Shown here in pieces: positions 488 to 27,911 of a DNA stretch of 42,603 bases. This stretch comes from Desulfobacterales bacterium (GTDB lineage: Bacteria; Desulfobacterota; Desulfobacteria; Desulfobacterales; JAHEIW01): the NCBI GenBank assembly GCA_050122495.1, contig JASFIU010000002.1, forward strand, positions 1 to 42,603. Direction: 5' to 3'. The notes under the pieces are model-generated. The model saw nothing but the letters and a program-made list of their open reading frames with translations, searched no databases and was not told the origin of the DNA. Position 1 is the first letter of the stretch. Every line of letters begins with the position of its first letter. Made by a program: the position numbers and the translations under genes.

Positions 488-1490
488 CTTCTTTTAACAG
501 ACAACACGCAATTTTATATTCCGGCACCCCATCGGCTGTATAGCTTAAATTTTGGGGCTGGATCAGTTTATTCATCACGCAGCCCTCCGGAATATTTAGC
601 TTGAACAAATCGCTCTCATTGAGGCTTTCAACCTCACCCAACATATTGTCTTTGAACTCCAGGCTGTGGAGGGGATAGTCCTCACAAAGGGGGCACCGAT
701 AGACCCTGCCGTTTGGGAATATAAAGTAATTCTGAGAAACCAGCCCGGCACACTCAAAGCGTTCTTCCGGTTCCAAAAAAACCTTCGGAAAGCTGACGGT
801 TACACCATGCCCGGCCACTTTTTGAGCCACGGCCGGAATGATCTCGAGCCATTTAGATTTGGAAACCTGAAGCGTTTGCCCGGGGTCTTTGGTTGATCTG
901 CTTAAAGCGGCTTTGCCCCGCAGCCCGATTACCTGAATGAAAAACCTGTCGAGGCCCAAATTCTTTATTAGGGACGGCATCAATTCGAGTTCATGGATGT
1001 TCATCATACTGACCGTGTAAATCAGGCTGGCAGCAAAGCCTTTATCAACCGCCTTTTGGATGCCCTTCAGACAGATATCGTAGGACCCTTCGCCTCGAAT
1101 CCGATCATTGGTTTCGCGGGTGGCGCCATCGAGGCTGAAACTGAAAAAATCCACCTCCCGGCAGCTGACCCGGCTAAGGATATCATGAAACAGATATCCA
1201 TTGGTATCTACTGTGATAGAAACGAAACCGCGGTCTTTGGCATATTTAACGGCGCCGGCCAGATCCGGGTGCAGGCTGGGCTCACCGCCCAGGAAGATGA
1301 CATTGGTTGCGGCGCTAATGGAAGCGAATTGATCCAGCCAGGCCTTGATGGTGGCCAGGGGCAGATTTTCCTTGCCTTGCTGTTCGGGATTAATATAGCA
1401 GTGCCGACATCGGAGGTTGCATTTTGTTAGGATGTGAAAAAAAAGATTGGAGGCGTTCTTGGAGAAGGCTACGGTTTTTCTGGCGGTCAT
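444..1490 (-). CDS. Radical SAM enzyme with a Cys-rich C-terminal (SPASM/twitch-like) region
   Basis: CNLRCRHCY (CX3CX2C) lies near the N-terminus with a GGEP motif following it. C-terminal cysteines include CAG, CPLCEDY, GCV and CC. The start overlaps the stop of the upstream gene by 4 nt (ATGA). Confidence 0.85.
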   Translation of the reverse strand: MTARKTVAFSKNASNLFFHILTKCNLRCRHCYINPEQQGKENLPLATIKAWLDQFASISAATNVIFLGGEPSLHPDLAGAVKYAKDRGFVSITVDTNGYLFHDILSRVSCREVDFFSFSLDGATRETNDRIRGEGSYDICLKGIQKAVDKGFAASLIYTVSMMNIHELELMPSLIKNLGLDRFFIQVIGLRGKAALSRSTKDPGQTLQVSKSKWLEIIPAVAQKVAGHGVTVSFPKVFLEPEERFECAGLVSQNYFIFPNGRVYRCPLCEDYPLHSLEFKDNMLGEVESLNESDLFKLNIPEGCVMNKLIQPQNLSYTADGVPEYKIACCLLKEEVSGVGCQVSGKET

Positions 1491-1996
1491 ATTTGTTCAA
1501 TCAACCGTTTAACTTTCTTTTTGGTCGCAATCAGCTCTTCGTTGGTGGCGCGCAGCCGAATGGACATGAATTCAGCGAATATGCGGTAAAGCAACAACAA
1601 AAAATCCAATTTTTCATCCTGGGTGTTGCCGGCTGACATTCTTCTTTTTGCGGATGTGTCAACGGCCAGACACATGGTTTCACCGATCGCATAAACGGAT
1701 GCCGATCGGCTCAGGCTGTCGATAACACGCATTTCACCGAAAATTTCACCTTTCGAATCAATGGTGCCGATTTCCATCCCTTCTTTGGTAATTCGTATTT
1801 TGCCGGAAAGCAGAAAGTATAGCCAGGGATCAAAATCACCTTCTTTGATGATCAGCTCGCCGTCCTCATATTCCCGGATTTTACTGAGCCGCAACAACTT
1901 TCCCAGGCTTTTGGTTTCAAAATTCCTAAGCGCTGGAATGGTCAATAATTTTTGAATATTTTCAATATTATCTTTCAGGTACCTGGATTCAAGCAT
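1487..1996 (-). CDS. Stand-alone cyclic-nucleotide-binding (Crp-type cNMP) domain protein
   Basis: A cNMP-binding beta-roll signature is present (GDFDPWLYFLLSGKIRI ... GEIFGEMRVID..SRSASV). No DNA-binding HTH is recognised. GGAGG SD lies 5 nt upstream of the ATG. Confidence 0.75.
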   Translation of the reverse strand: MLESRYLKDNIENIQKLLTIPALRNFETKSLGKLLRLSKIREYEDGELIIKEGDFDPWLYFLLSGKIRITKEGMEIGTIDSKGEIFGEMRVIDSLSRSASVYAIGETMCLAVDTSAKRRMSAGNTQDEKLDFLLLLYRIFAEFMSIRLRATNEELIATKKKVKRLIEQI

Positions 1997-3704: not shown

Positions 3705-3788
3705 TTATCGAAGTACTCCAAATAAAAGTATTGCATTAAAGACTGTATACATCTATTTACGGCAAATTAATTGACTCGGTGTAAAAAC

Positions 3789-3872
3789 CGAGGAGGAGTA
3801 CGAGTACGACCCCGAGGACGAAAAATGTGGAGTTGAAAATCCTACTCGTCCTCGTGCTCGTGCTCGTCCTCG
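3789..3872. repeat. Periodic-arm hairpin, CGAG(G/T)A hexamer family
   Basis: Left arm 3789-3820 is CGAGGAGGAGTACGAGTACGACCCCGAGGACG. The loop is AAAAATGTGGAGTTGAAAATC. Right arm 3842-3872 is CTACTCGTCCTCGTGCTCGTGCTCGTCCTCG. The element is flanked on both sides by AAAAAC. Confidence 0.9.
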
Positions 3873-8523: not shown

Positions 8524-8641
8524 TAGATTGGTTGTATTGGTTTTATTCGTTTAATTGATTCAATTTGTTTAGAGCATTTGGTTCTTAAACTCAAGCCGTT
8601 TAACCAATAGAACCCATCAAACCAATTAGACTAATTCAAAC
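8524..8641. repeat. Periodic-arm hairpin, ATTGGTT family, abutting the stop codon of the GOGAT fusion gene
   Basis: The left arm is TAGATTGGTTGTATTGGTTTTATTCGTTTAATTGATTCAATTTG. Right arm 8598-8641 is GTTTAACCAATAGAACCCATCAAACCAATTAGACTAATTCAAAC. The right arm is near-identical to 11172-11213. Confidence 0.8.
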
Positions 8642-10989
8642 TACTCTATAGGTGTGTTTTCGACCAGATCCCACACACCGCAGGGACAGGCACCGGCACA
8701 GAAGCCGCAACCGATACAGAGGTCTTCATCTACGACATATTCATAAGCGTTACTTTCCAGATCTTTTCTGCTGATGGCAGACTGCGGGCAAACCGACACA
8801 CAGATGCCGCAGTCCCGGCAGTCACCGCAGGAGGAGCATTGCGACCCGCAGTGATCCAGATCCGCAAATTCGGTAATCCGGGGATCAAAATATTCCAAGG
8901 TTACCCGCTGTCGATCGATCATTTCGCGCTTTTCAGAAGCCGGCTTTTTGCCTTCAAACCTATCGCCGATGGTCTGCGCGACGATTCGGCCGGCGCCAAT
9001 GGCTTCGGTCAGCAACCCTGGCTGGACGACATCACCAATGGCAAAAATCTGGGCATCTGAGGTCTGGTAAGAGTCATTTACTTTAACAAAATCATTTTCG
9101 ATGGCAATATTTTCGGGAATAAACTCAAGGTCCGGCACATCGCCAATGGAAACAATGACCGTATCGGCAGGCACCTCTTCTCCGGTGGTCAATTTCACGC
9201 CCGATTTGGTAATTTCCTGCGTAAATACCGGCCATGAAAATTCTGCCCCCGCCGCCTCGGCGGCTTCTCTTTCTTTGCCGAAAGATGCCGGTTCCTGAAT
9301 ATCCAGCAGGGTAATTTTTTTAGCGCCCAGTCGATGGGCTTCAGCCGCCGCATCACAGCCCACATTACCGGCTCCGATAATAACCACATTTTTGCCCACC
9401 TTGGTTTTATTCTGCTTAGCGGCTGTCAGGAAATCAAGGGCGGTGATAGCCCTATCATTGCCCGGAACTGGAAGGTTTCTGGGTTTCTGAGCACCGGTGG
9501 CTATGACGACAAAATCAAAATCAGCTTTAAGCTGGGTAATGTCTTTGGGCCCCAGAGGCTGTTGAAGATTTACCTGGGGAATCACCTCTTTGACCCGTTG
9601 CATCTCTTTGGTGATTACTTTTTTAGGAATGCGGCTTTCGGGAATCACCCGCGTGATTTTACCACCTAAAGATTTCGCCACCTCGTAAATCGTGACCTGA
9701 TGCCCCTGACGGCGCAGCTGCCAGGCCACCGAAATTCCTGCCGGGCCCCCACCGATAACCGCAATCTTTTTATCGGTTTCCGGGGGTAGATCGGGCAGTT
9801 TGGCCTTGATGCTGGACTGACCCAGCTGGGTGACATCCACCGGAGCCATGGCTGAGATCTGCCGTGAACAAGATTGCATACAAAGGTTGGGACACAAGTA
9901 CCCGCAAATCGATGCCGGAAAGGGCGTATAGCCCAGCGCCAGATCAACGGCTTCATCCACGCGTCCTTCACGGATCAAACGCCATCTTTCCTGAACAGGA
10001 ATACCGGTTGGGCAGGTCGCCTCACAGGGTGCGGCGTATTTGCGGTTTTCCCAGACCGGAACAAATCGCCGTAGCAAGCTGTTGGTGATTAAGGGAATGG
10101 GGCTTCGATCCAGATGGGTAAGATCGCCAATTAGCCCGCCCTGCCCCAGCTCCTTTTCCCAGGTGCGCGTGCGAAATGAATGCATCGATCGCATCGGGCT
10201 GGAAATTTTTTCCTGGGGTGTGCGTGCGACTAAAAGCTGCCACTGCTCTCTGTCGGAAAAGAATTTCGTCAGCTCGGATCGATCGATCTGTTTCAGGAAA
10301 ACCTTTAAATTCTCGGTCAGCCAGTTCCAATCATCGTCTTTAATGGGAACCAGTTTCGCATCGGTCTGGCTGTAGCCGACATGAGGACCCCGGAAGAACA
10401 CTTTTCCACCGACCATGCCGACAAAGGGCCGATATCCCAGAATGTTATCCGGGTTCTGGGGCCCATGTCCGCAAATTACGGCAATTCCTCCTGCCATAAA
10501 TTCACCGAAGTAGTCACCGGCAGAGCCCAGCACCCAGAGCTCGGGCGGTTCAAAACGCGGATTATGTTTGGTCATGGTCATACCGCGCGCACCGATATTG
10601 CCGTCAATAAAAATTTTGCCCTGGGCCATCGCATTGGCGCAGCCATTGCCGGCATTTCCATGGATGACGATTTCGGCTCCGGCATTGAGCCAGCCGACAT
10701 CATCTGAGGCTGGCCCCAGGACTTCGATAAGGGTGTTGGGAAAGCCCATGGAGCCCACTCGTTGTCCCGGGTGTCCGGAAATTTTGATGTGCACCGGTTC
10801 ATTTCCGGCACACCAGAGCCGGCCGCCGATACCATGCTGACCGAAGGCATTAACTTCTATCGAGCGCTGACCCTGGGCAACCGCTTCCTGAATCTGCTCT
10901 TCAAGTATCCTTGATTCCAGTCTTTCTCCGCTGAATTTACCCGAAATCACTCTGGGGGGTTTATCGTTAACCGTGACTTGGTTATCCAT
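8641..10989 (-). CDS. Glutamate synthase fusion protein: GXGXG domain (GltB domain 3), GltD-like NAD(P)H/FAD oxidoreductase, and C-terminal 2x[4Fe-4S] ferredoxin
   Basis: N-terminal GXGXG beta-helix repeats are present (GHPGQRVGSMG, HGNAGNGCANAMAQG, GSAGDYFGEFMAGG). GltD-type Fe-S motifs are CEATCPTG and CGYLCPNLCMQSC. Two Rossmann motifs are VIGGGPAG and IIGAGNVG. The C-terminus carries CGDCRDCGICVSVCP and CIGCGFCAGACP. Confidence 0.85.
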   Translation of the reverse strand: MDNQVTVNDKPPRVISGKFSGERLESRILEEQIQEAVAQGQRSIEVNAFGQHGIGGRLWCAGNEPVHIKISGHPGQRVGSMGFPNTLIEVLGPASDDVGWLNAGAEIVIHGNAGNGCANAMAQGKIFIDGNIGARGMTMTKHNPRFEPPELWVLGSAGDYFGEFMAGGIAVICGHGPQNPDNILGYRPFVGMVGGKVFFRGPHVGYSQTDAKLVPIKDDDWNWLTENLKVFLKQIDRSELTKFFSDREQWQLLVARTPQEKISSPMRSMHSFRTRTWEKELGQGGLIGDLTHLDRSPIPLITNSLLRRFVPVWENRKYAAPCEATCPTGIPVQERWRLIREGRVDEAVDLALGYTPFPASICGYLCPNLCMQSCSRQISAMAPVDVTQLGQSSIKAKLPDLPPETDKKIAVIGGGPAGISVAWQLRRQGHQVTIYEVAKSLGGKITRVIPESRIPKKVITKEMQRVKEVIPQVNLQQPLGPKDITQLKADFDFVVIATGAQKPRNLPVPGNDRAITALDFLTAAKQNKTKVGKNVVIIGAGNVGCDAAAEAHRLGAKKITLLDIQEPASFGKEREAAEAAGAEFSWPVFTQEITKSGVKLTTGEEVPADTVIVSIGDVPDLEFIPENIAIENDFVKVNDSYQTSDAQIFAIGDVVQPGLLTEAIGAGRIVAQTIGDRFEGKKPASEKREMIDRQRVTLEYFDPRITEFADLDHCGSQCSSCGDCRDCGICVSVCPQSAISRKDLESNAYEYVVDEDLCIGCGFCAGACPCGVWDLVENTPIE

Positions 10990-11013
10990 TTATGGTCTCC
11001 AAACTATAGAATA

Positions 11014-11114
11014 GTGCCTAAAGTTGGAAGTGACTAAAGTGACTAAAATTTTAAAAGGATAGAATCCGATTTAACTTTAGCTCACTTTAGTTCACTCTAG
11101 TCACTTTAGCTCAC
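11014..11114. repeat. Periodic-arm hairpin, GTGACTAAA / TCACTTTAG 9-10-mer family
   Basis: Left arm 11014-11047 is GTGCCTAAAGTTGGAAGTGACTAAAGTGACTAAA. Right arm 11071-11114 is TTAACTTTAGCTCACTTTAGTTCACTCTAGTCACTTTAGCTCAC. The arms are unequal (about 3 versus 4.5 units). Confidence 0.85.
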
Positions 11115-11116
11115 TC

Positions 11117-11213
11117 GGGTTTTATTGGTTTTATTAGTTTGATTGGTTTAGACACGATCGCTGGTCCTGACGTTAACCAATTGAACCCATCAAACCAATT
11201 AAACGAATTAAAC
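11117..11213. repeat. Periodic-arm hairpin, ATTGGTT family, abutting and overlapping the stop codon of the GOGAT FMN-domain gene
   Basis: Left arm 11117-11151 is GGGTTTTATTGGTTTTATTAGTTTGATTGGTTTAG. Right arm 11172-11213 is GTTAACCAATTGAACCCATCAAACCAATTAAACGAATTAAAC. About 25 of 33 positions are complementary. Confidence 0.85.
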
Positions 11214-12842
11214 AACATACTTGATCTTCAATCGCTCCGCCACATTGGGATCATCGATACCCAATGCATCGGACATGCCGATGGGCAATGATGTGGATCG
11301 CCCCAGCGGCGCGACTATTTTTTTAAGTTCAGTATCAAAACTCAAATAAAGGTCCACCAGACGCTGGGCCACCTGCTCAGCATCAAGGCGCCGATACAGC
11401 CGCGGGTCCTGGGATGTTATGCCCTTGGGACAAAGTCCGATATTGCAGATGTTGCAGCGGTCGGATTCCGAGCCCAGACAGCCGGCAGCCGCCTGCATAA
11501 CATATTTTCCGATTTGTACGCCGCTGGCGCCCAGCATGATTAACGCGGCGGCATTGGCCGCTAGATTTCCGTTTTTGCCGATGCCGCCACCGGCAAACAA
11601 AGGCACCTGGTTTTGCATGCCCAGCTGCACCAGGGTCAGATATCCATCGCGAATATTGCTGGCGATGGGGTGCCCCATGTGATTCATGGAAACATTATAG
11701 GCAGCACCCGTCCCACCGTCCTCACCGTCAATCGCCAGTCCTGCAGCATAGGGATTGCGGGTTAGGTTGTTCAAGACCGCCATCGCCGTCGAGGTGCCTG
11801 AAATTTTCGGATAGACCGGCACACGGAAACCCCAGGCCATGTACATGGACTGGATCATTTTGGCCACCGATTCTTCAATCGAATATTTGGTCTGATGGGT
11901 AGGCGGGCTGGGCAGGTTCACACCGGTGGGCACGCCCCGGATGGCGGCAATCAGCTTGTTGACCTTGTACCACATCAGCAACCCGCCATCGCCGGGTTTG
12001 GCGCCCTGTCCATACTTGATCTCGATGGCACAGGGGTCTTCTTTCATCTCCGGAATGGCGTGAATAATTTCATCCCAGCCGAAGTATCCGCTGGCAATCT
12101 GCAGGATGACATATTTTAAAAACCGGGACCGCAACAGCCGCGGCGGGCATCCGCCTTCCCCGGTACAGACCCGCACCGGCATGCCCAGTTCTTCGTTTAA
12201 ATAGGCCACCCCCATCTGCAATCCTTCCCACATGGTGGGTGACAGGGCGCCGAAAGACATGGCCCCGATGATCAACGGATAGATTTCACGGACCGGCGGA
12301 ATCCAGCCGTTCACGCTTAAAAATTTCAGATTGTCTTCGGGCGGCAAAACGCGTCCCAGCAACGTGCGCAGTTCAAACTCGTGGCGGCCGGCATCCAGGG
12401 CCGGGTCGGTTAACATGGAGATCCGGATAAATTTCAGGCGATCTAAAACGCCGCCAGCCACATTGCGACGTCCGCCTCTTCTGCGGGGCTGGCCGCCCTG
12501 GTCGACATGAAATTTGAGCTTGTCGCTTTCATCGCTTCGACAGGGAACGATGCAGTCATTGGGGCAAACCATGGTACACATGGCACAGCCGATGCACCTG
12601 TAGGCCGGGTCTGTTTTTTGCCGAATACCATAATAGCTCGTATAGGCCATCACCGGAGCCTGCGTCAGGTCCGACGGTGGCTCGAGCAGCCGCTTGCGAA
12701 ATACCCCCAGTTCAATTGCATTTACAGGACACACGGCGGTGCATTTGCCGCAAAGGGTGCATTTTTGCTTATCCCATAAAATCTGCCACGGTAAGTCCCT
12801 GATGCTCAGTGTGGAAGGGGTAATGGGTCTTTCTGGTTCCAT
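11208..12842 (-). CDS. Glutamate synthase FMN-binding central domain (GltB domain 2) with N-terminal 2x[4Fe-4S] ferredoxin
   Basis: Fe-S motifs are CTLCGKCTAVCP and CIGCAMCTMVCP. A GltB-type FMN/TIM-barrel segment follows (ISMLTDPALDAG, KYGQGAKPGDGG, GGTGAA, GIGKNGNLA). The start overlaps the upstream gene by 37 nt. Confidence 0.85.
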   Translation of the reverse strand: MEPERPITPSTLSIRDLPWQILWDKQKCTLCGKCTAVCPVNAIELGVFRKRLLEPPSDLTQAPVMAYTSYYGIRQKTDPAYRCIGCAMCTMVCPNDCIVPCRSDESDKLKFHVDQGGQPRRRGGRRNVAGGVLDRLKFIRISMLTDPALDAGRHEFELRTLLGRVLPPEDNLKFLSVNGWIPPVREIYPLIIGAMSFGALSPTMWEGLQMGVAYLNEELGMPVRVCTGEGGCPPRLLRSRFLKYVILQIASGYFGWDEIIHAIPEMKEDPCAIEIKYGQGAKPGDGGLLMWYKVNKLIAAIRGVPTGVNLPSPPTHQTKYSIEESVAKMIQSMYMAWGFRVPVYPKISGTSTAMAVLNNLTRNPYAAGLAIDGEDGGTGAAYNVSMNHMGHPIASNIRDGYLTLVQLGMQNQVPLFAGGGIGKNGNLAANAAALIMLGASGVQIGKYVMQAAAGCLGSESDRCNICNIGLCPKGITSQDPRLYRRLDAEQVAQRLVDLYLSFDTELKKIVAPLGRSTSLPIGMSDALGIDDPNVAERLKIKYVV

Positions 12843-13936
12843 AACGTAACCTCCTGACGATCCGGACCGACATAGACCGTATCCAGATGCATCGGTTGAA
12901 AATCTTTGCTTTTATCCCGATTGGGAATGGCGGCGTCCAGACCACAAATCTCAGAAGAAAACGCAAAGATGCCTGGCTTACCACCGACAACGCCGGGTCG
13001 CAGTTTCTTGCGATCCTGTACCATAAACACACTATGGTCTGGCAGACAGCCGATAACGCAATTGGGCCCGTCGATGATCAGCGGCCGGCAGGTTTGCTTC
13101 AGATTCTTTAAAAAATCGCTGTTCGGATGATCGACCAAATCTGAATCCTGCAAGGGTGTAATCAGGTGTTTATATGTTTCAATTCCAAGTCCGAGTTTGG
13201 TAACTGCATAGTGCAGGATATGCGTAAAAACCTCTGAATCCGACTCATAGCCGGTGTATCCTGGAAAGCCTCTTGATTCCAAAAAGGATCGGATCGGAAC
13301 AAATGCCGTATTTTCTCCGTTGGTCATGGTTGAATACCCCTGAATGAAAAACGGATGACAGGCATACAGCGTGATGGCATAATTGGTGTTCTGCCGGCCC
13401 TGAGCCATGATCACTCTGGCAAAAAGCTCTTTGCGGTCCAGGTTCAGATGCTGAGCAATGAGCATGGGATCCCCGATTTCCTTTATCATAATCACATCCG
13501 GCCAGAAGGAGAAAACAATCATGTCATTTTGTTCCTGCCCCATCGTTCTGAGCTGAAGCCGGATTTTTAGGAGTTGATCATAGAGTTCCGCCTGGCTGAA
13601 ATCCTCCCACTCTTCCGGGTATTCATATGCCCGGATCAGATATACATCCCGCTTGGGAACACCGGGAGGAGGTGTTTTAGGTAGCTTAACCGAGATTTTA
13701 TATTTGGTCATAAAGCCGATATCCATCATGAATGTGTCCAGGCGCTTTAGCCCTTTATCGCTGAAGATTCCCGACAAAATCGGGGCGTCTTTCATCTCAT
13801 CAAACGGCCCGCCAAGATCCCGCAGAAAAATCCCGACGCCGGAACAATCATGACCCTCACGCATGACATCAAGCGCATCCAGCGCAACCATTGGTGATAG
13901 CGGCTCCTTGCTGGTGATGGCAAATAAGCGGCACAT
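12806..13936 (-). CDS. Class II (Ntn) glutamine amidotransferase, glutamate synthase domain 1
   Basis: The N-terminus is MCRLFAI, with the catalytic Cys directly after Met. It is 376 aa and is the first gene of a three-gene split GOGAT. AAGGAG SD lies 10 nt upstream. Confidence 0.8.
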   Translation of the reverse strand: MCRLFAITSKEPLSPMVALDALDVMREGHDCSGVGIFLRDLGGPFDEMKDAPILSGIFSDKGLKRLDTFMMDIGFMTKYKISVKLPKTPPPGVPKRDVYLIRAYEYPEEWEDFSQAELYDQLLKIRLQLRTMGQEQNDMIVFSFWPDVIMIKEIGDPMLIAQHLNLDRKELFARVIMAQGRQNTNYAITLYACHPFFIQGYSTMTNGENTAFVPIRSFLESRGFPGYTGYESDSEVFTHILHYAVTKLGLGIETYKHLITPLQDSDLVDHPNSDFLKNLKQTCRPLIIDGPNCVIGCLPDHSVFMVQDRKKLRPGVVGGKPGIFAFSSEICGLDAAIPNRDKSKDFQPMHLDTVYVGPDRQEVTLWNQKDPLPLPH

Positions 13937-13960
13937 GGTAATTGATCTCCTTTTTCAGTA

Positions 13961-14004
13961 TAAAATTAAAAATAAAAAATCCTGCCGGGGCAAAAACTGA
14001 CAGG
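13961..14004 (-). promoter_or_regulatory. Terminator-like hairpin plus U-tract in the 5-prime leader of the GOGAT operon (possible attenuator)
   Basis: The minus-strand RNA reads CCUGUC-AGUUUUUGCCCC-GGCAGG. This is a 6-bp stem including one G-U that would be a C-A mismatch on the other strand. It is followed by AUUUUUUAUUUUUAAUUUUA and ends about 25 nt before the SD. Confidence 0.4.
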
Positions 14005-14471
14005 GGTGCGATCTCCATTGCGATCGAACCGGTAAGTTGCAGCAATGTAGATCAGATCCGTCAGGTTAGCGCTTGGGGCAGGAAGTACTGCAAATTATGG
14101 TAGTCAAGAAATTCATCATCAGAATCTTTATGGGAGGTTATCGGAGTCGAATAGCGGGCCCGGGAGTCACCTTCGAGAATCATCGGACCGGCTGTAAAAC
14201 ATGCGGGGCATCATATTGGAATGGTTCCCGAATCAAAATTGGGATTAAATATGAATACGTTATAATGCCAGCCAACATCGTTCATCGTTCCCTTGCGGGA
14301 AATGATGAATTTAGCATTGCGCTCCTTTTAAATTTTAATAAAACCCCCTTCCAAAATACAATACGTTTAGTTTTCAATCGCTTGTATCATATAAACATCA
14401 TTTGAAAAACAAAAAATTGATATAGATCAACGAATCATCCAAACGATTCAAATTGGCGCTAAGAAATCTTC

Positions 14472-14487
14472 AGCAATGTCCGTGCCA
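14472..14487 (-). promoter_or_regulatory. Sigma-54 (-24/-12) promoter facing the GOGAT operon
   Basis: The minus strand reads TGGCAC-GGACA-TTGCT, a perfect match to TGGCAC-N5-TTGCW. It lies in a 1.1 kb AT-rich non-coding gap about 535 nt upstream of the GATase start codon. Confidence 0.7.
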
Positions 14488-14876
14488 GAGCGGCGCGCAT
14501 CACAACCCATTATAATGACTAGGAATATGGATCATGTAAAATATAACAGACAAAAAATCCCACATAATTGTAATGGCAAGCTCCTTAAATTTACAAAAAC
14601 GTAAGAATTAAGCCCATTTTCACCAGCCCCAATTAACCGCACCCGTTGCGGTGATCAACTGACTGCCGCCTTCAGAAGAAAATAAGCAGAATCGATAGGA
14701 CGACATTTTTTCACCCCAAATCAAGATTCATCCGACAAAATCGCTTATCGTGTGTGTTGGCTACCGCAAGAAAATTTATTTAATAATCTGCATCACTCCT
14801 AAAATTAAAATTTGCTGGTCATTTTAATCAATCTTTCCTGATGGTTGTTCGGGTTCTTTCTCGGACGCTTATCTTT

Positions 14877-14905
14877 TTGACAAGTCAACCGCTTTATTTT
14901 ATATA
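14877..14905 (+). promoter_or_regulatory. Sigma-70-type promoter candidate for the 15083 cNMP-binding gene
   Basis: TTGACA lies at 14877-14882. A 17-nt spacer separates it from TATATA at 14900-14905. Confidence 0.45.
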
Positions 14906-15082
14906 TATTAGGTTAACTTCCTAATCAGAGTTCTACCCCTAATATGGTGGCTGCCACAATTTGATTTATCTGATTGCCAAATCTTCTCCAATCTTAAAAT
15001 GTTCATATGGACATCAGGCTAGTTTAGGAGAAGAATATTAGGCGAAATTTAGAATCGTTTAGACACAAAGGTGGGAACGGTC

Positions 15083-15523
15083 ATGTATATCAAACAATCG
15101 GAGCTTTTTGCAGGGACCAGTATGGATTTCGTAAAAAAATTCATGGACATTTCAGAAATGTCTTCCCATAAGAAAGGTGAGATGCTTTTCAGCGAAAAAG
15201 ATCCGGCGAAGTTTTTTTTTATTCTGCTCAATGGGCGCGTAAAATTAAGTGTGGGAGAGCCGAAACAGGCGGTTTATAACGCTTCCCGCAATGGGGAAGC
15301 TTTTGGATGGTCAAGTCTCATCGGGGGAGATGTTTACTCTGCTTCGGCGGAATGTATCGAACCGACCAAATTACTAAAAACCAGCAGTGATAAATTATCG
15401 CGAATTTTAAACGCAGATCCCGACAATGGGATTATTTTCTTCAAACAACTTGCCGCCACCCTTGGCAACCGGTTGCTTGAAACGTATAAGATGATTACAC
15501 CCAAAACTGGAGATACCAAATAA
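15083..15523 (+). CDS. Stand-alone cyclic-nucleotide-binding domain protein
   Basis: A cNMP-binding fold signature is present (FFFILLNGRVKLSV ... GEAFGWSSLIGG..YSASAEC) with no HTH. ATG at 15083, with AAGGTGGG upstream, is preferred over the GTG at 15071 used by the track. Confidence 0.7.
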   Translation: MYIKQSELFAGTSMDFVKKFMDISEMSSHKKGEMLFSEKDPAKFFFILLNGRVKLSVGEPKQAVYNASRNGEAFGWSSLIGGDVYSASAECIEPTKLLKTSSDKLSRILNADPDNGIIFFKQLAATLGNRLLETYKMITPKTGDTK

Positions 15524-15540
15524 CATAAACTTAGGATTGG

Positions 15541-15609
15541 GGTTTCGGGTGTCAGGTGTCAGGTGTCAGAAATGCAAAATCTGAAACCTGAACACTGAAA
15601 CCTAAAACC
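15541..15609. repeat. Periodic-arm hairpin, GGTGTCA heptamer family (cleanest example)
   Basis: Left arm 15541-15569 is GGTTTCGGGTGTCAGGTGTCAGGTGTCAG. The loop is AAATGCAAAAT. Right arm 15581-15609 is CTGAAACCTGAACACTGAAACCTAAAACC. 22 of 29 positions are complementary, and the mismatches recur with the repeat period. Confidence 0.9.
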
Positions 15610-15626
15610 AGTGAAAGGAGATCGTT

Positions 15627-16964
15627 ATGCCAGACAATCCTTTAAACCACATAAAGAAGCCTGGATTAACCCGGCGTGATTTTTTATGGCTGTCATCGCT
15701 GGCCGCCGCCGGCTATGTGTTCGGGTGCGCCACGGATCCGGTAACGGGAAAAAAGCAGTTCATGCTGGTATCCGAAGATACCGAAATTCAAATCGACAAA
15801 CAGTATTCACCGCTTCAGTTTTCCTCAGATTTCGGGGAAGTGCAGGACAGCCAATTAAACCGCTACGTCAGCCAGATCGGAGACAAGATGGCCGCATCAT
15901 CCCATCGACCCCATATGCCGTATACATTTCGGGTGGTCAACGCCACCTATATCAATGCCTATGCCTTTCCCGGCGGCAGCATTGCCGCCACCCGCGGCAT
16001 CATGCTCTCGCTGGACAACGAAGCCGAACTGGCCGCCCTGCTGGGCCACGAACTGGGCCATGTAAACGCCCGACACTCAGCCGAGCAGATGTCTAAAGGT
16101 CAGTTAACCCAGGCGATTGTTGGCGGAATTTCGACAGTGGCCGGAACCCAGAATGCGGCGCTGGGAGACTTGGCCGGCCAGCTGGGCCAGATTGCCGGCG
16201 GCGCCCTGCTGGCGTCTTACAGCCGGGATAACGAACGCGAAGCCGATGCCCTGGGGATGGAATATATGGTCGGCGCCGGCTATGGTTCCGAGGGCTTTGT
16301 CGGGCTGATGGACATGCTGAACAGCCTGTCCAAACACAAATCCGGTTCTGTCGAGCTTTTGTTTGCCACCCATCCGATGAGTTCGGAGCGTTACGATACG
16401 GCTGTCCAAATGGCAAATACAACCTATTCATCTTCGCTTAAAGGGCCTTTACACCGCGAGCGCTACATGGACCATACCGCCCGCTTACGGTCCCAAAAAG
16501 GGGCGATTGAAGAGATTGAAAAAGGGCAAAAGGAAATGGCCCAGAAAAAATATGATGCCGCCAGCAATCATTTTCGTCGGGCCTTGAAACAGGCGCCCAA
16601 TGATTATGTTGCCCTATGCATGATGTCGATAAGCAATCTGGCCCAGAAAAAATATGCGGTCGCTCGTCAGTATGCCGAGATGGCCCAAAAGTCCTATCCC
16701 AAAGAAGCCCAGGCCTATCATCTCAGCGGCTTTTCCAAAATTCAGCTGAAGGATTTCGAGGGTGCTTATGAAGAATTTAACACCTACGAATCGCTGCTGC
16801 CCGGAAATCCAAACGTCATTTTTTTTAAAGGTTATTGCCAGGAAGGCATGGAACAGATCGAGCCGGCGGCCGAAGAATACAAGCGCTACCTGCAGGTGGT
16901 CCAGCAGGGAAAGTACGCCCAGCATGCCTATAAACGGTTGGTGGATTGGGGGTATATTAAGTAA
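15627..16964 (+). CDS. M48-family Zn metallopeptidase with C-terminal TPR repeats, Tat/lipoprotein-type signal
   Basis: The HELGH zinc motif is present. The N-terminus is TRRDFLWLSSLAAAGYVFGC (twin-Arg plus lipobox). TPR-like helices fill the C-terminal third. GAAAGGAG SD is present. Confidence 0.85.
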   Translation: MPDNPLNHIKKPGLTRRDFLWLSSLAAAGYVFGCATDPVTGKKQFMLVSEDTEIQIDKQYSPLQFSSDFGEVQDSQLNRYVSQIGDKMAASSHRPHMPYTFRVVNATYINAYAFPGGSIAATRGIMLSLDNEAELAALLGHELGHVNARHSAEQMSKGQLTQAIVGGISTVAGTQNAALGDLAGQLGQIAGGALLASYSRDNEREADALGMEYMVGAGYGSEGFVGLMDMLNSLSKHKSGSVELLFATHPMSSERYDTAVQMANTTYSSSLKGPLHRERYMDHTARLRSQKGAIEEIEKGQKEMAQKKYDAASNHFRRALKQAPNDYVALCMMSISNLAQKKYAVARQYAEMAQKSYPKEAQAYHLSGFSKIQLKDFEGAYEEFNTYESLLPGNPNVIFFKGYCQEGMEQIEPAAEEYKRYLQVVQQGKYAQHAYKRLVDWGYIK

Positions 16965-20047: not shown

Positions 20048-20285
20048 AAACGTTGTTTTTGACATAATCGCAAACCGCTTTTCAGCCGTCGCGAACCTTG
20101 CATTTTCAATCACCCACCTGTTGCCATTATCGGCGAAGCTGTTATAATTTAAAAAACTGATATTACATTTTTGTAATATTTTTTCCCGATTTCTGGCAAA
20201 TTCGTAATAACTCTAAACAGCATCATCTCGGGGGCAGACTGTTATCATACTGAAATTACATATATTTTATCAAAATTGCCCCTGA

Positions 20286-20301
20286 TGGCATGCATGTTGC
20301 T
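20286..20301 (+). promoter_or_regulatory. Sigma-54 (-24/-12) promoter upstream of glnD
   Basis: TGGCAT-GCATG-TTGCT has correct GG-N10-GC spacing. It ends 45 nt upstream of the glnD ATG. Confidence 0.7.
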
Positions 20302-20345
20302 CAACAAGCTGTGATTCATCTAATCCATATGAAACATACCGCAAA

Positions 20346-24314: not shown

Positions 24315-24713
<399 letters not shown>

Positions 24714-26178: not shown

Positions 26179-26203
26179 GCCCTGCTCGAAAGAGCAGGGC
26201 TTT
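26179..26203. terminator. Bidirectional intrinsic terminator between convergent glnA and the sigma-54 activator gene
   Basis: GCCCTGCTC-GAAA-GAGCAGGGC is a perfect 9-bp stem with a GAAA loop. It is followed by TTT on the plus strand and preceded by AAA. Confidence 0.8.
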
Positions 26204-27725
26204 ATCGATAAGATTTATATTCAACTCCATACTTTTGGGCCTTATAGCCGAACTTCCTCACGGTGGTCTTCAAAATTTCGGCGGCCAGGGTGATGTTGCC
26301 CCGGGTGTTTTTCAGGGCGTCGATGATCATTTCTTTCTCAAGACTGGCGACGGCATCCTCTAAAGAAAGCGTCGGCACTGTACCCGATTCTTTGCCAGTT
26401 TGAAGGGTGGGCGGCAGATGGTAGCTGTGAATCACACCTTCTTCGCAAAGCAGCACCGCACGCTCAATACAGTTTTCAAGCTCTCTTACATTTCCCGGCC
26501 AGTGGTATTCCATGAGCATATCAATGGCCGGCGTCGACAATCTTTTTATATTTTTGTGATTCTCCCTGGCATATTTCTCGAGAAAATAGTCCGCCAGCAG
26601 CAATATATCGGTCTTGCGTTCACGCAGCGGCGGCAGGTAAATCGGAAACACATTTAATCGATAGTAGAGATCGCCCCTGAAGGATTCGTCCTCAACGGCA
26701 TCCTCCAGGTTTTTATTGGTGGCGGCAATAATGCGCACATCTGTTTTGATGGTCCGGTGCCCCCCGACCCGCTCAAATTCTTTTTCTTGAAGTATTCTGA
26801 GCAGATTGGCCTGAACATCCAGCCCCAGAGAGCCGATTTCATCCAGAAAGATGGTGCCCTTGTGAGCCAGTTCAAATTTGCCGATTTTTTGTTTGATGGC
26901 ACCGGTAAAGGCACCCTTCTCATGGCCAAACAGTTCACTTTCAATCAGATTGACGGGCAAGGCCGCACAATTGACCTTAACGAAGGGATTTTGGGCCCGA
27001 TGGCTGCCGTAGTGAATTGAGTTGGCAACCAGCTCTTTGCCGGTCCCGCTTTCACCCCGTATCAGTACGGTTGCATTGCTCTTGCAAACCTGGGAGACCA
27101 TTTGAAAAACCTCACGCATTTTATTGCTGTTGCCGACAATGTTGCTGATACTGTATTTGTCTTTGAGCACGTTTTGTAAGCGCCGATTCTCCTCCCGCAA
27201 CCGTTCTTTTTCCAGACGTATGGTTTCAAGTTTGATCACATGGCTGGCGATCATCGCCGCGATAACTGCAAGTAGTTTTTGACCTCTTTTGAGCGCATAG
27301 GACTTATCAAAAGGCCGGTCCACACTGAGGGCGCCGATGACCTGTTTTCCTTTTTTAACCGGAACACAGATAAATGATCGCTCTTTACCCTCCTTTTTCT
27401 TGCGTGTTGCCGTGCGATCCAAAAAGAGCGGTTCCTCGCTGATTTTAGGAATTGACACCGCCTTTCCGGTCTCGATCACCTTGCCGGTAATACCTTCTCC
27501 AAGTTTATATTTGACCCGGTTCATCGTGCTTTGTGTCAGACCGTGGGCGACTTCGATATTAATCTCGTTGCGCAGGGGATTCAAAATTGTTATAGTGCCC
27601 TGCACCATGTTCATTGAGTTGGACAAGATATCCAGCACCTTATACAGCGACTTTCTCAAATCCAGATGCTCGTTTAGCGCATTGGTGATTTCGTACAGAA
27701 GCGTAACCTCTTCAATCGGTTTCAT
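26202..27725 (-). CDS. Sigma-54-dependent transcriptional activator with N-terminal GAF domain (NifA-like architecture, no receiver domain)
   Basis: The AAA+ core carries GESGTGKE, GAFTGA and the R-finger region. A C-terminal Fis-type HTH is present. The N-terminal 170 aa are GAF-like, and no phospho-acceptor REC domain is seen. Confidence 0.85.
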   Translation of the reverse strand: MKPIEEVTLLYEITNALNEHLDLRKSLYKVLDILSNSMNMVQGTITILNPLRNEINIEVAHGLTQSTMNRVKYKLGEGITGKVIETGKAVSIPKISEEPLFLDRTATRKKKEGKERSFICVPVKKGKQVIGALSVDRPFDKSYALKRGQKLLAVIAAMIASHVIKLETIRLEKERLREENRRLQNVLKDKYSISNIVGNSNKMREVFQMVSQVCKSNATVLIRGESGTGKELVANSIHYGSHRAQNPFVKVNCAALPVNLIESELFGHEKGAFTGAIKQKIGKFELAHKGTIFLDEIGSLGLDVQANLLRILQEKEFERVGGHRTIKTDVRIIAATNKNLEDAVEDESFRGDLYYRLNVFPIYLPPLRERKTDILLLADYFLEKYARENHKNIKRLSTPAIDMLMEYHWPGNVRELENCIERAVLLCEEGVIHSYHLPPTLQTGKESGTVPTLSLEDAVASLEKEMIIDALKNTRGNITLAAEILKTTVRKFGYKAQKYGVEYKSYR

Positions 27726-27911
27726 AGCATAAAATTCTTTCCTATAATTAAAAAATTAATTTGACGGATCTGTTATGGCTCGAACATAATAATACAATTT
27801 TGTAATAAATTGCAACCTATTTTCCCGGGCCACCGGAACTTGGTTCAGGCTGCCGGCTAAATGCCGGTTTTTAAAATTGGGTAATGGGAACATAACCATG
27901 ACAAATTTTAC

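Follow-up and report, generated by a model that had tools for sequence, protein, structure and literature searches.

We analyzed a 42,603-nucleotide (nt) stretch of DNA from a Desulfobacterales bacterium (the window), which carries a nitrogen-assimilation locus. The split glutamate synthase (GOGAT) operon of this locus is encoded on the minus strand from the ATG at position 13936, and it is preceded by a sigma-54 (−24/−12) promoter motif and by a long predicted leader. We propose that this leader is probably a transcription attenuator fed by tandem promoters. Judged from its sequence, the GOGAT promoter is an ordinary member of a known regulon type, and the new component is the clade-specific leader, with its probable second promoter, a structured RNA domain that has no catalogued relative, and a terminator-like end.

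The original prediction had placed a perfect sigma-54 promoter at 14487-14472 on the minus strand, in the only large AT-rich noncoding gap that faces a nitrogen-assimilation operon, and had put the number of chance matches at ~0.08 and the length of the resulting leader at ~525 nt. All four statements agree with our results. The site reads TGGCACGGACATTGCT and fits the extended consensus TGGCACG-N4-TTGCW (quoted in PMC2725144), with GG at −24, GC at −12, and the fixed spacing. It is the sole exact match to TGGCAC-N5-TTGCW in the window, where 0.07 matches are expected by chance (at least one match in 7 of 100 dinucleotide-preserving shuffles). Taken alone, the exact match is of moderate significance (~0.07). 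The gap that holds the site (13937-15082, 1,146 bp, GC content of 0.33 to 0.41) is the largest intergenic gap of the window, and it separates the operon ATG from a divergent gene that begins at 15083. Counted from its first base, the motif is 551 nt upstream of the ATG, and transcription initiating ~11 nt past the GC element would start near 14461 and give a leader of ~525 nt. Scoring with a sigma-54 position weight matrix, as had been suggested, was carried out over the window with a matrix trained on 52 orthologous sites, the window being left out. The site scored 20.0 bits and none of 20 shuffled windows reached 20 (best scores of 9.3 to 19.1 bits). Only one other site in the window exceeded 12 bits (20282-20305, plus strand, 20.9 bits), and it lies ~45 nt before glnD.

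To place the motif in its evolutionary context, we used 80 orthologous Desulfobacterales loci anchored on the first GOGAT gene and scanned up to 700 nt upstream, on the correct strand, for motifs with at most one deviation. The sigma-54 motif was found upstream of the orthologous gene in 53 of the 80 loci, compared to 0 of 80 coding stretches and 1 of 80 opposite strands. Upstream of the motif, the window carries two candidate activator dyads (Table 1), which sit within the 80- to 150-bp range of enhancer-binding sites (their binding being predicted). Matches to the dyad consensus with at most one mismatch occur at approximately −120 and/or −90 in 39 of 51 testable orthologous loci, regardless of leader length, compared to four matches in coding controls of twice the length. 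A second dyad near −90, ~31 bp from the first, is present in many orthologs. The motif and the paired dyads are conserved together, and the region has the standard anatomy of an enhancer-dependent promoter. The second sigma-54 site of the window, before glnD (TGGCATGCATGTTGCT, 20286-20301, plus strand), is similarly equipped, with a perfect dyad (TTACATTTTTGTAA, 20163-20176) 110 bp upstream of it. The glnD gene heads a glnD-amtB-PII-glnA cluster, and glnD-amtB-glnK-glnA and the GOGAT operon probably belong to one regulon. These observations bear out the earlier reading of the site as a sigma-54 promoter, and we consider it very probable that the site is functional. We infer its dependence on RpoN and the identity of its activator, which is discussed below.

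The original prediction had called so long a leader unusual, and here our comparison disagrees. Of the 53 orthologs with a motif, 28 have 160 nt or less between motif and ATG, 11 have 161 to 300 nt, and 14 exceed 300 nt, making long leaders less unusual than assumed. These long leaders form several groups that are unrelated in sequence, and the window belongs to one of them. With its closest GTDB relatives (loci L001 to L004 and L048), the window shares an alignable block of ~475 nt that ends at the ATG. In total, we recovered 19 leaders of this family, each preceding the first GOGAT gene. A scan of a metagenome collection with a degenerate 26-nt leader pattern matched 12 contigs. The pattern lies upstream of the same ATGTGY gene in all 11 contigs that are long enough (L084 ends before the gene), and a sigma-54 motif is located 260 to 360 nt upstream of the pattern in 9 of the informative contigs. 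Three loci (L002, L087, and L089) keep the block and lack the whole dyad-plus-promoter module. Beyond the close clade, an nhmmer search detected L006 alone.

Identity to the window is 63 to 84% in the leader versus 43 to 64% at the four-fold degenerate sites of the adjacent gene, and no alignment is possible in the segment separating the sigma-54 site from the block, which argues that the block is under selection. The comparisons support the view that the ~525-nt leader is a clade-specific control region and not a spacer. The suggestion that the leader points to control after initiation, or to an RNA or small gene within it, also gains ground from its conservation, a covarying RNA domain, a hairpin followed by a U-run, and a possible small open reading frame (ORF), all described below. 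Two other interpretations of the block were rejected. A mobile or multicopy element does not agree with a pattern that is always upstream of the same gene and with a covariance model (below) that found no copy elsewhere in 800 kb. A protein-coding leader or pseudogene does not agree with the non-triplet indels that, in relatives, break the 110-amino-acid (aa) ORF at 14073-14405 (plus strand) and the short minus-strand ORFs. Elsewhere among the orthologs, the leaders of L015 and L017 (approximately −200 to −120 from the ATG) are GC-rich, with GTCAGCCGGTCAGCC-type units repeated in tandem downstream of the sigma-54 promoter and before the gene; these leaders show no sequence kinship to the leader of the window.

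The conserved block opens with a perfect CRP/FNR-type box that occurs as a single exact copy in the window. The related loci (~800 kb) contain nine exact copies, each at the orthologous position. About 23 nt downstream of the box is a segment that is near-invariant in the relatives (TATATGATATAAGC, compared to TATATGATACAAGC in the window; alignments A1 and A2), and TGnTATAAG is recognizable even in the distant loci L006 and L007. Depending on whether TATATG or TATGAT is taken as the −10 element, the box center (14423.5) falls at −41.5 to −44.5 from a start that is predicted without a −35 element. This spacing fits a class II activator-dependent promoter. The −10 block is kept in L002, L087, and L089, all without the sigma-54 module, and such retention of the leader in relatives without the module argues for a promoter at this place. 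We lean toward the presence of a sigma-70-type promoter (promoter P2) at the box and the −10 block, from which transcripts may have a leader of ~445 nt. A promoter scan made no call at promoter P2 because a −35 element is lacking.

Downstream of promoter P2, RNAalifold runs on the leader alignments predicted the helices of a 158-nt domain, R1. When a covariance model of R1 was run over the window and 92 loci, only GOGAT leaders were matched: 18 close members, L006 (84 bits), L005 (68 bits), and L007 (47 bits), the last of which was found though it had been left out of model building. In the R1 alignment, which was fitted to the model, 89% of the cells are paired versus 35 to 50% with slid partners, 15 of 33 pairs have changes on both sides versus 5 to 13 when slid, and the covariation score is 0.276 versus 0.06 to 0.09 when slid (0 of 500 shuffles reached the observed values). 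Rfam gave no match at the gathering score across the whole window, and in the region 13800-15700 a threshold of E ≤ 10 returned only miRNA, CRISPR, and MS2 noise. Assignment of R1 to a known RNA family (glutamine riboswitch, ykkC/ppGpp, T-box, and others) was rejected, as none came near its covariance-model threshold. In L006, R1 adjoins the ribosome-binding site (RBS) and no terminator is present.

In all 17 aligned leaders, a stem followed by a U-rich run precedes the start codon by ~30 to 40 nt; in the window, this element lies ~30 nt before the RBS. Half of the relatives have it in canonical form, the window in a weak one. The stem reaches −14 to −20 kcal/mol in seven leaders (L003, L004, L048, L085, L086, L090, and L092); five of these seven stems are 9- to 10-bp hairpins, and a terminator was called by the scan in L048 and L085. 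Compensatory changes across the 17 leaders affect stem position 6 (CG to UA and the reverse) and position 7 (GC to AU and the reverse), together with several wobble changes. The 3′ domain of the window, in which this element lies, has a minimum free energy of −38 kcal/mol (z = −4.27), and 0 of 200 shuffles fold as well. The invariant UCCUGCC (14083-14077) is an alternative partner of the 3′ arm of the terminator, and the resulting long hairpin adjoins the U-run. The 5′ arm of the terminator, too, has an alternative partner in the window, CUGACGG (14064-14058). For such an antiterminator, RNAalifold and the folding of single sequences gave different pictures from subgroup to subgroup. We also considered, and rejected, a promoter downstream of the U-run and before the ATG, since the candidate TATACT occurs in the subgroup of the window alone, lacks a −35 element, and is not conserved. 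Because there is no conserved promoter past the U-run, expression of the operon needs read-through, and we infer termination and its relief at the 3′ end of the leader.

A different type of leader hairpin occurs in Desulfosarcina-type loci (L018, L020, L024, L025, L028, L034, L037, L044, and L045), which have a short sigma-54 leader with a strong, conserved hairpin (CCGGCAUUGA...UCAAUGCCGG) and a U-run. This hairpin is found ~37 to 40 nt before the ATG and in some loci starts a few bases past the predicted transcription start. It could be a terminator or a 5′ stabilizing stem. The idea of a leader terminator common to all Desulfobacterales was rejected, because in some of these loci the hairpin starts so close to the predicted start that it may have another role.

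Upstream of the terminator-like element there is a possible 17-codon upstream ORF (uORF). Twelve of 13 uninterrupted relatives retain its start, frame, and stop, and the synonymous share of codon differences is 36% in the uORF frame versus 10% and 19% in the other frames. It lacks a Shine-Dalgarno sequence, and it is absent from L005, L006, and L007. A hairpin insertion cuts it to eight codons in L048, L086, and L092, and a 1-nt deletion shifts its frame in L085. On balance, we doubt that the uORF is real. The insertion itself (66 to 227 nt; lengths of 66, 78, 78, and 227 nt) occupies, inside the uORF, exactly the same leader position in L048 (~3750-3815), L085, L086, and L092 and has terminal inverted repeats (AACCTATCTCAAAAAT...ATTTTTGAGATAGGTT; alignment A2, columns 326 to 552). 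Its appearance is that of either a miniature inverted-repeat element or an expandable stem.

We propose the following model for the leader. The sigma-54 motif would be the working RpoN promoter of the split GOGAT operon, activated by an enhancer-binding protein on the two dyads ~90 and 120 bp upstream, for which the NifA-like regulator encoded at 26202-27725 is a candidate. Promoter P2, located ~80 nt past the sigma-54 start and made up of the CRP/FNR-type box and a TGnTATAAG-like −10 element, would supply a second input, and the two inputs would converge on one leader of ~445 nt. The leader RNA would fold into R1 and the long 3′ hairpin domain that ends in the stem and U-run, and the operon would be expressed only when RNA polymerase passes the stem and U-run. 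The leader would act as a transcription attenuator, with R1 as its likely sensor, binding some factor.

Several observations weigh against this model. Promoter P2 has no recognizable −35 element, its −10 element ends in G (TACAAG in the window), and the CRP/FNR-type box is absent from L002, L003, and L087. The proximal hairpin of the window is weak (6 bp, one of them G-U; −8.5 kcal/mol) and was not called by a simple terminator scan. No antiterminator pairing kept across the clade was found, the pairing seen in the window being confined to its subgroup. The stability of R1 (z = −0.66) and that of the whole leader (z = −1.57) are unexceptional, and the covariation of R1 comes from a narrow clade with few independent events. 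Finally, there is no rpoN gene within the window.

Table 1. Positions of the GOGAT operon and of the predicted control elements upstream of it
Feature	Position	Strand	Sequence or composition	Remark
Activator dyad 1 (candidate)	14591..14604	-	TTACGTTTTTGTAA	Consensus TTACA-N4-TGTAA; starts 117 bp upstream of the sigma-54 motif
Activator dyad 2 (candidate)	14560..14573	-	TTACAATTATGTGG	2 mismatches; 31 bp downstream of dyad 1, ~86 bp upstream of the motif
Sigma-54 (−24/−12) promoter	14472..14487	-	TGGCACGGACATTGCT	Predicted start near 14461
CRP/FNR-type box	14417..14430	-	TTGAT-CTAT-ATCAA, TTGATCTATATCAA	Perfect; opens the conserved block
Near-invariant block	14380..14393	-	TATATGATACAAGC	Candidate −10/extended −10; predicted start ~14380 ± 3
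R1	14150..14307	-	158 nt	Predicted hairpin P1, helix P2 (2-nt bulge), inner hairpin P3, variable hairpin H8
Possible 17-codon uORF	14066..14119	-	ATGATGAAT...TAA; product MMNFLTTIICSTSCPKR	Frame conservation
3′ domain	13955..14085	-	UCCUGCC (14083-14077) pairs with GGCAGGA (13986-13980) at the base	Long imperfect hairpin
Terminator-like element	13968..14004	-	CCUGUC (14004-13999) pairs with GGCAGG (13986-13981), then UUUUUUAUUUUU (13979-13968)	
Split GOGAT operon	8641..13936	-	Three genes	Domain matches
Operon gene 1	12806-13936	-	MC... N-terminus	Weak GATase_6 match (E = 0.033)
Operon gene 2	11208-12842	-	4Fe-4S and Glu_synthase FMN domain	
Operon gene 3	8641-10989	-	GXGXG and GltD-like oxidoreductase	

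The factor that would govern read-through could be of several kinds. If R1 were the aptamer of a metabolite riboswitch that decides termination, its ligand might be glutamine, glutamate, 2-oxoglutarate, or an alarmone. The conserved junction nucleotides flanked by covarying R1 helices and the terminator-like expression platform are consistent with this possibility, as is L006, where R1 stands beside a Shine-Dalgarno sequence without a terminator; one domain with differing platforms is typical of riboswitches. Other RNA classes are also known to govern glutamate synthase genes (the gltD motif and glutamine riboswitch [PMC8632094] and ppGpp riboswitches [PMC6003355]). However, R1 is found in a single gene context in a narrow clade, has neither an Rfam match nor exceptional stability, and has a degraded helix P2 in L005, and a protein or small RNA could also recognize it. 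We regard an aptamer of this kind as unlikely. Also unlikely is the reading in which R1 represents a new class of riboswitch, senses a metabolite of nitrogen status, and gates GOGAT after initiation from both promoters; the output would then be the terminator in most members and the RBS in L006. Alternatively, read-through may be controlled by an ANTAR-type response regulator, as by GnfK/GnfR in Geobacter, where paired activator sites, a sigma-54 promoter, and a premature leader terminator are laid out alike (PMC2995071). Nitrogen genes, glutamate synthase among them, often have ANTAR targets upstream (PMC3369931), and GCAAUGG just upstream of the hairpin in the subgroup of the window resembles part of the GnfR site CAGGCAANGGCGCC. 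Yet a regular-expression scan found the hexaloop hairpin pair (A1 and G4) near the terminator in 0 of 17 leaders, no ANTAR-domain protein is encoded in the 42.6-kb window, and the leader is several times longer than the mechanism needs, and we consider such control improbable. Classical leader-peptide attenuation, in which translation of the uORF (14119-14066) sets the fold of the 3′ domain, would account for the conservation of the ATG and stop (12 of 13 uninterrupted relatives) and for the synonymous excess in the correct frame, and in the window the uORF stop is only 2 nt from CUGACGG, the candidate antiterminator arm. The missing Shine-Dalgarno sequence, the absence of the uORF from three distant leaders (L005, L006, and L007), and the four insertion-bearing relatives, in which the uORF is truncated or, by a 1-nt deletion, frameshifted without regard to spacing, all speak against this mechanism. 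In addition, the codons (Thr, Ile, Cys, and Ser) have no obvious tie to glutamate synthase, and the antiterminator pairing is not kept across the clade. Such attenuation appears quite unlikely.

The remaining alternatives concern what is transcribed and from where. The leader could be mainly a stand-alone small RNA of ~400 to 500 nt made from promoter P2 and/or the sigma-54 promoter and ending at the terminator, with the operon mRNA as a read-through by-product. In favor of a small RNA are a candidate promoter of its own, the conserved structure, and the terminator, and sigma-54-dependent small RNAs are known in other bacteria. We give this alternative little probability, because in every case the element sits immediately before the one gene, with an unvarying distance to the RBS, because the operon relies on read-through where no conserved promoter lies between the U-run and the ATG, and because L006 has no terminator. 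It is also conceivable that the sigma-54 motif is a chance or vestigial occurrence and that the operon is transcribed only from promoter P2, given that L002, L087, and L089 manage without the sigma-54 module and that the probability of the motif alone is ~0.07 per window. The stereotyped orthologous spacing of the motif and both dyads, the presence of the motif in 53 of 80 orthologs versus 0 of 80 controls, and the like module upstream of glnD in the window make this highly improbable. Tandem promoters feeding an attenuator in the GOGAT leader remain the reading that we prefer.

The genes around the leader are largely those of nitrogen assimilation. For operon gene 1, no Pfam or NCBIfam model scored above threshold and no solved structure was matched by sequence; only the MC... 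N-terminus and the weak GATase_6 match suggest an amidotransferase role. The gene has 593 confirmed relatives in the genome scan. After the three GOGAT genes, carA, carB, and purF come on the minus strand. The plus strand encodes a 146-aa cNMP-binding-domain protein, an M48 peptidase, glnE, glnD, amtB, the PII gene (24375-24713), and glnA. Beyond glnA, a GAF-AAA+-HTH activator (26202-27725, minus strand) scores 520 bits on the NifA model, whose cutoff is 529. The window contains no nif genes despite this NifA-like activator. A one-mismatch dyad (ATACAATTTTGTAA, 27792-27805) upstream of the activator gene may indicate autoregulation.

On the divergent side of the gap, a near-consensus sigma-70 promoter (TTGACA-17 nt-TATATA, 14877-14905, plus strand) faces the cNMP-binding-domain gene (ATG at 15083), to which it would give a leader of ~170 nt. 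It is kept in L002 and was not called by the promoter scan because its −10 element ends in A. The window encodes two small proteins with a cNMP-binding domain and no DNA-binding domain (15083-15523, plus strand, 146 aa; 1487-1996, minus strand, 169 aa). The 146-aa protein is found between GOGAT and glnE only in the long-leader clade (11 loci); most other Desulfobacterales have glnE immediately next to GOGAT, in divergent orientation.

Together, glutamine synthetase and glutamate synthase form the main route of ammonium into biomass, and to our knowledge the control of this pathway in sulfate-reducing Desulfobacterales is essentially unstudied. If our model is true, three layers act on the GOGAT operon: a sigma-54 promoter, a promoter with CRP/FNR-family input, and a common RNA checkpoint. 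In addition to the model, the analysis yields a 158-nt RNA domain, a candidate activator-site consensus (TTACA-N4-TGTAA), and a probable two-member regulon in the window (the GOGAT operon and glnD-amtB-glnK-glnA).

Parts of this arrangement have counterparts in known systems. The gltD motif, the glutamine riboswitch (PMC8632094), and the ppGpp riboswitches (PMC6003355) are likewise structured RNAs directly upstream of GOGAT genes, with a terminator or an RBS-occluding platform. However, they belong to other phyla, and R1 is much larger and matches no Rfam sequence or structure. In Escherichia coli, glnA is transcribed from the tandem promoters glnAp1 (sigma-70, CRP-dependent) and glnAp2 (sigma-54, NtrC-dependent) (PMC1865078). 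Like the window, this is a nitrogen gene with a sigma-54 promoter and a sigma-70 promoter that bears a CRP-family site. The order is reversed in the window, where the sigma-54 promoter is distal and the second promoter is only predicted, and the E. coli gene lacks a long structured leader, whereas both promoters of the window would feed one. A tandem arrangement of this kind would combine nitrogen status with a second signal.

The closest parallels come from Geobacter. The glutamate synthase operon GSU1235-1239 of Geobacter sulfurreducens has a reported RpoN promoter (PMC2725144). The two systems share a −24/−12 promoter before a split, multigene GOGAT operon that begins with genes annotated as hypothetical, as well as a sigma-54 nitrogen-assimilation regulon in a former deltaproteobacterium. 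They differ in that G. sulfurreducens belongs to another order and that PMC2725144 describes no long conserved leader, internal promoter, or structured domain. Geobacter nitrogen genes have paired GnfM sites at approximately −131 to −91, a sigma-54 promoter, and a premature leader terminator relieved by the ANTAR regulator GnfR (PMC2995071). In layout, the window resembles the GnfL/GnfM plus GnfK/GnfR cascade of the Geobacter nitrogen-fixation genes, with two activator sites ~90 to 130 bp upstream and then a predicted leader terminator that must be overcome, and it differs from this cascade in its ~525-nt leader, which contains a 158-nt conserved domain and a candidate sigma-70 promoter and lacks a GnfR/ANTAR motif. 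An ANTAR target consists of two small hairpins in tandem, each with A1 and G4 in a hexanucleotide loop, and its second hairpin overlaps the terminator (PMC3369931). ANTAR targets too are leader terminators upstream of nitrogen-metabolism genes, including glutamate synthase, whereas dual hairpins with A1 and G4 were not found near the terminator in the 17 leaders. Membership of the leader among the ANTAR targets is not supported, but its logic may be similar. If our model is true, the combination of a sigma-54 promoter with downstream leader termination, known from Geobacter, reaches another order, with a different and much larger RNA element.

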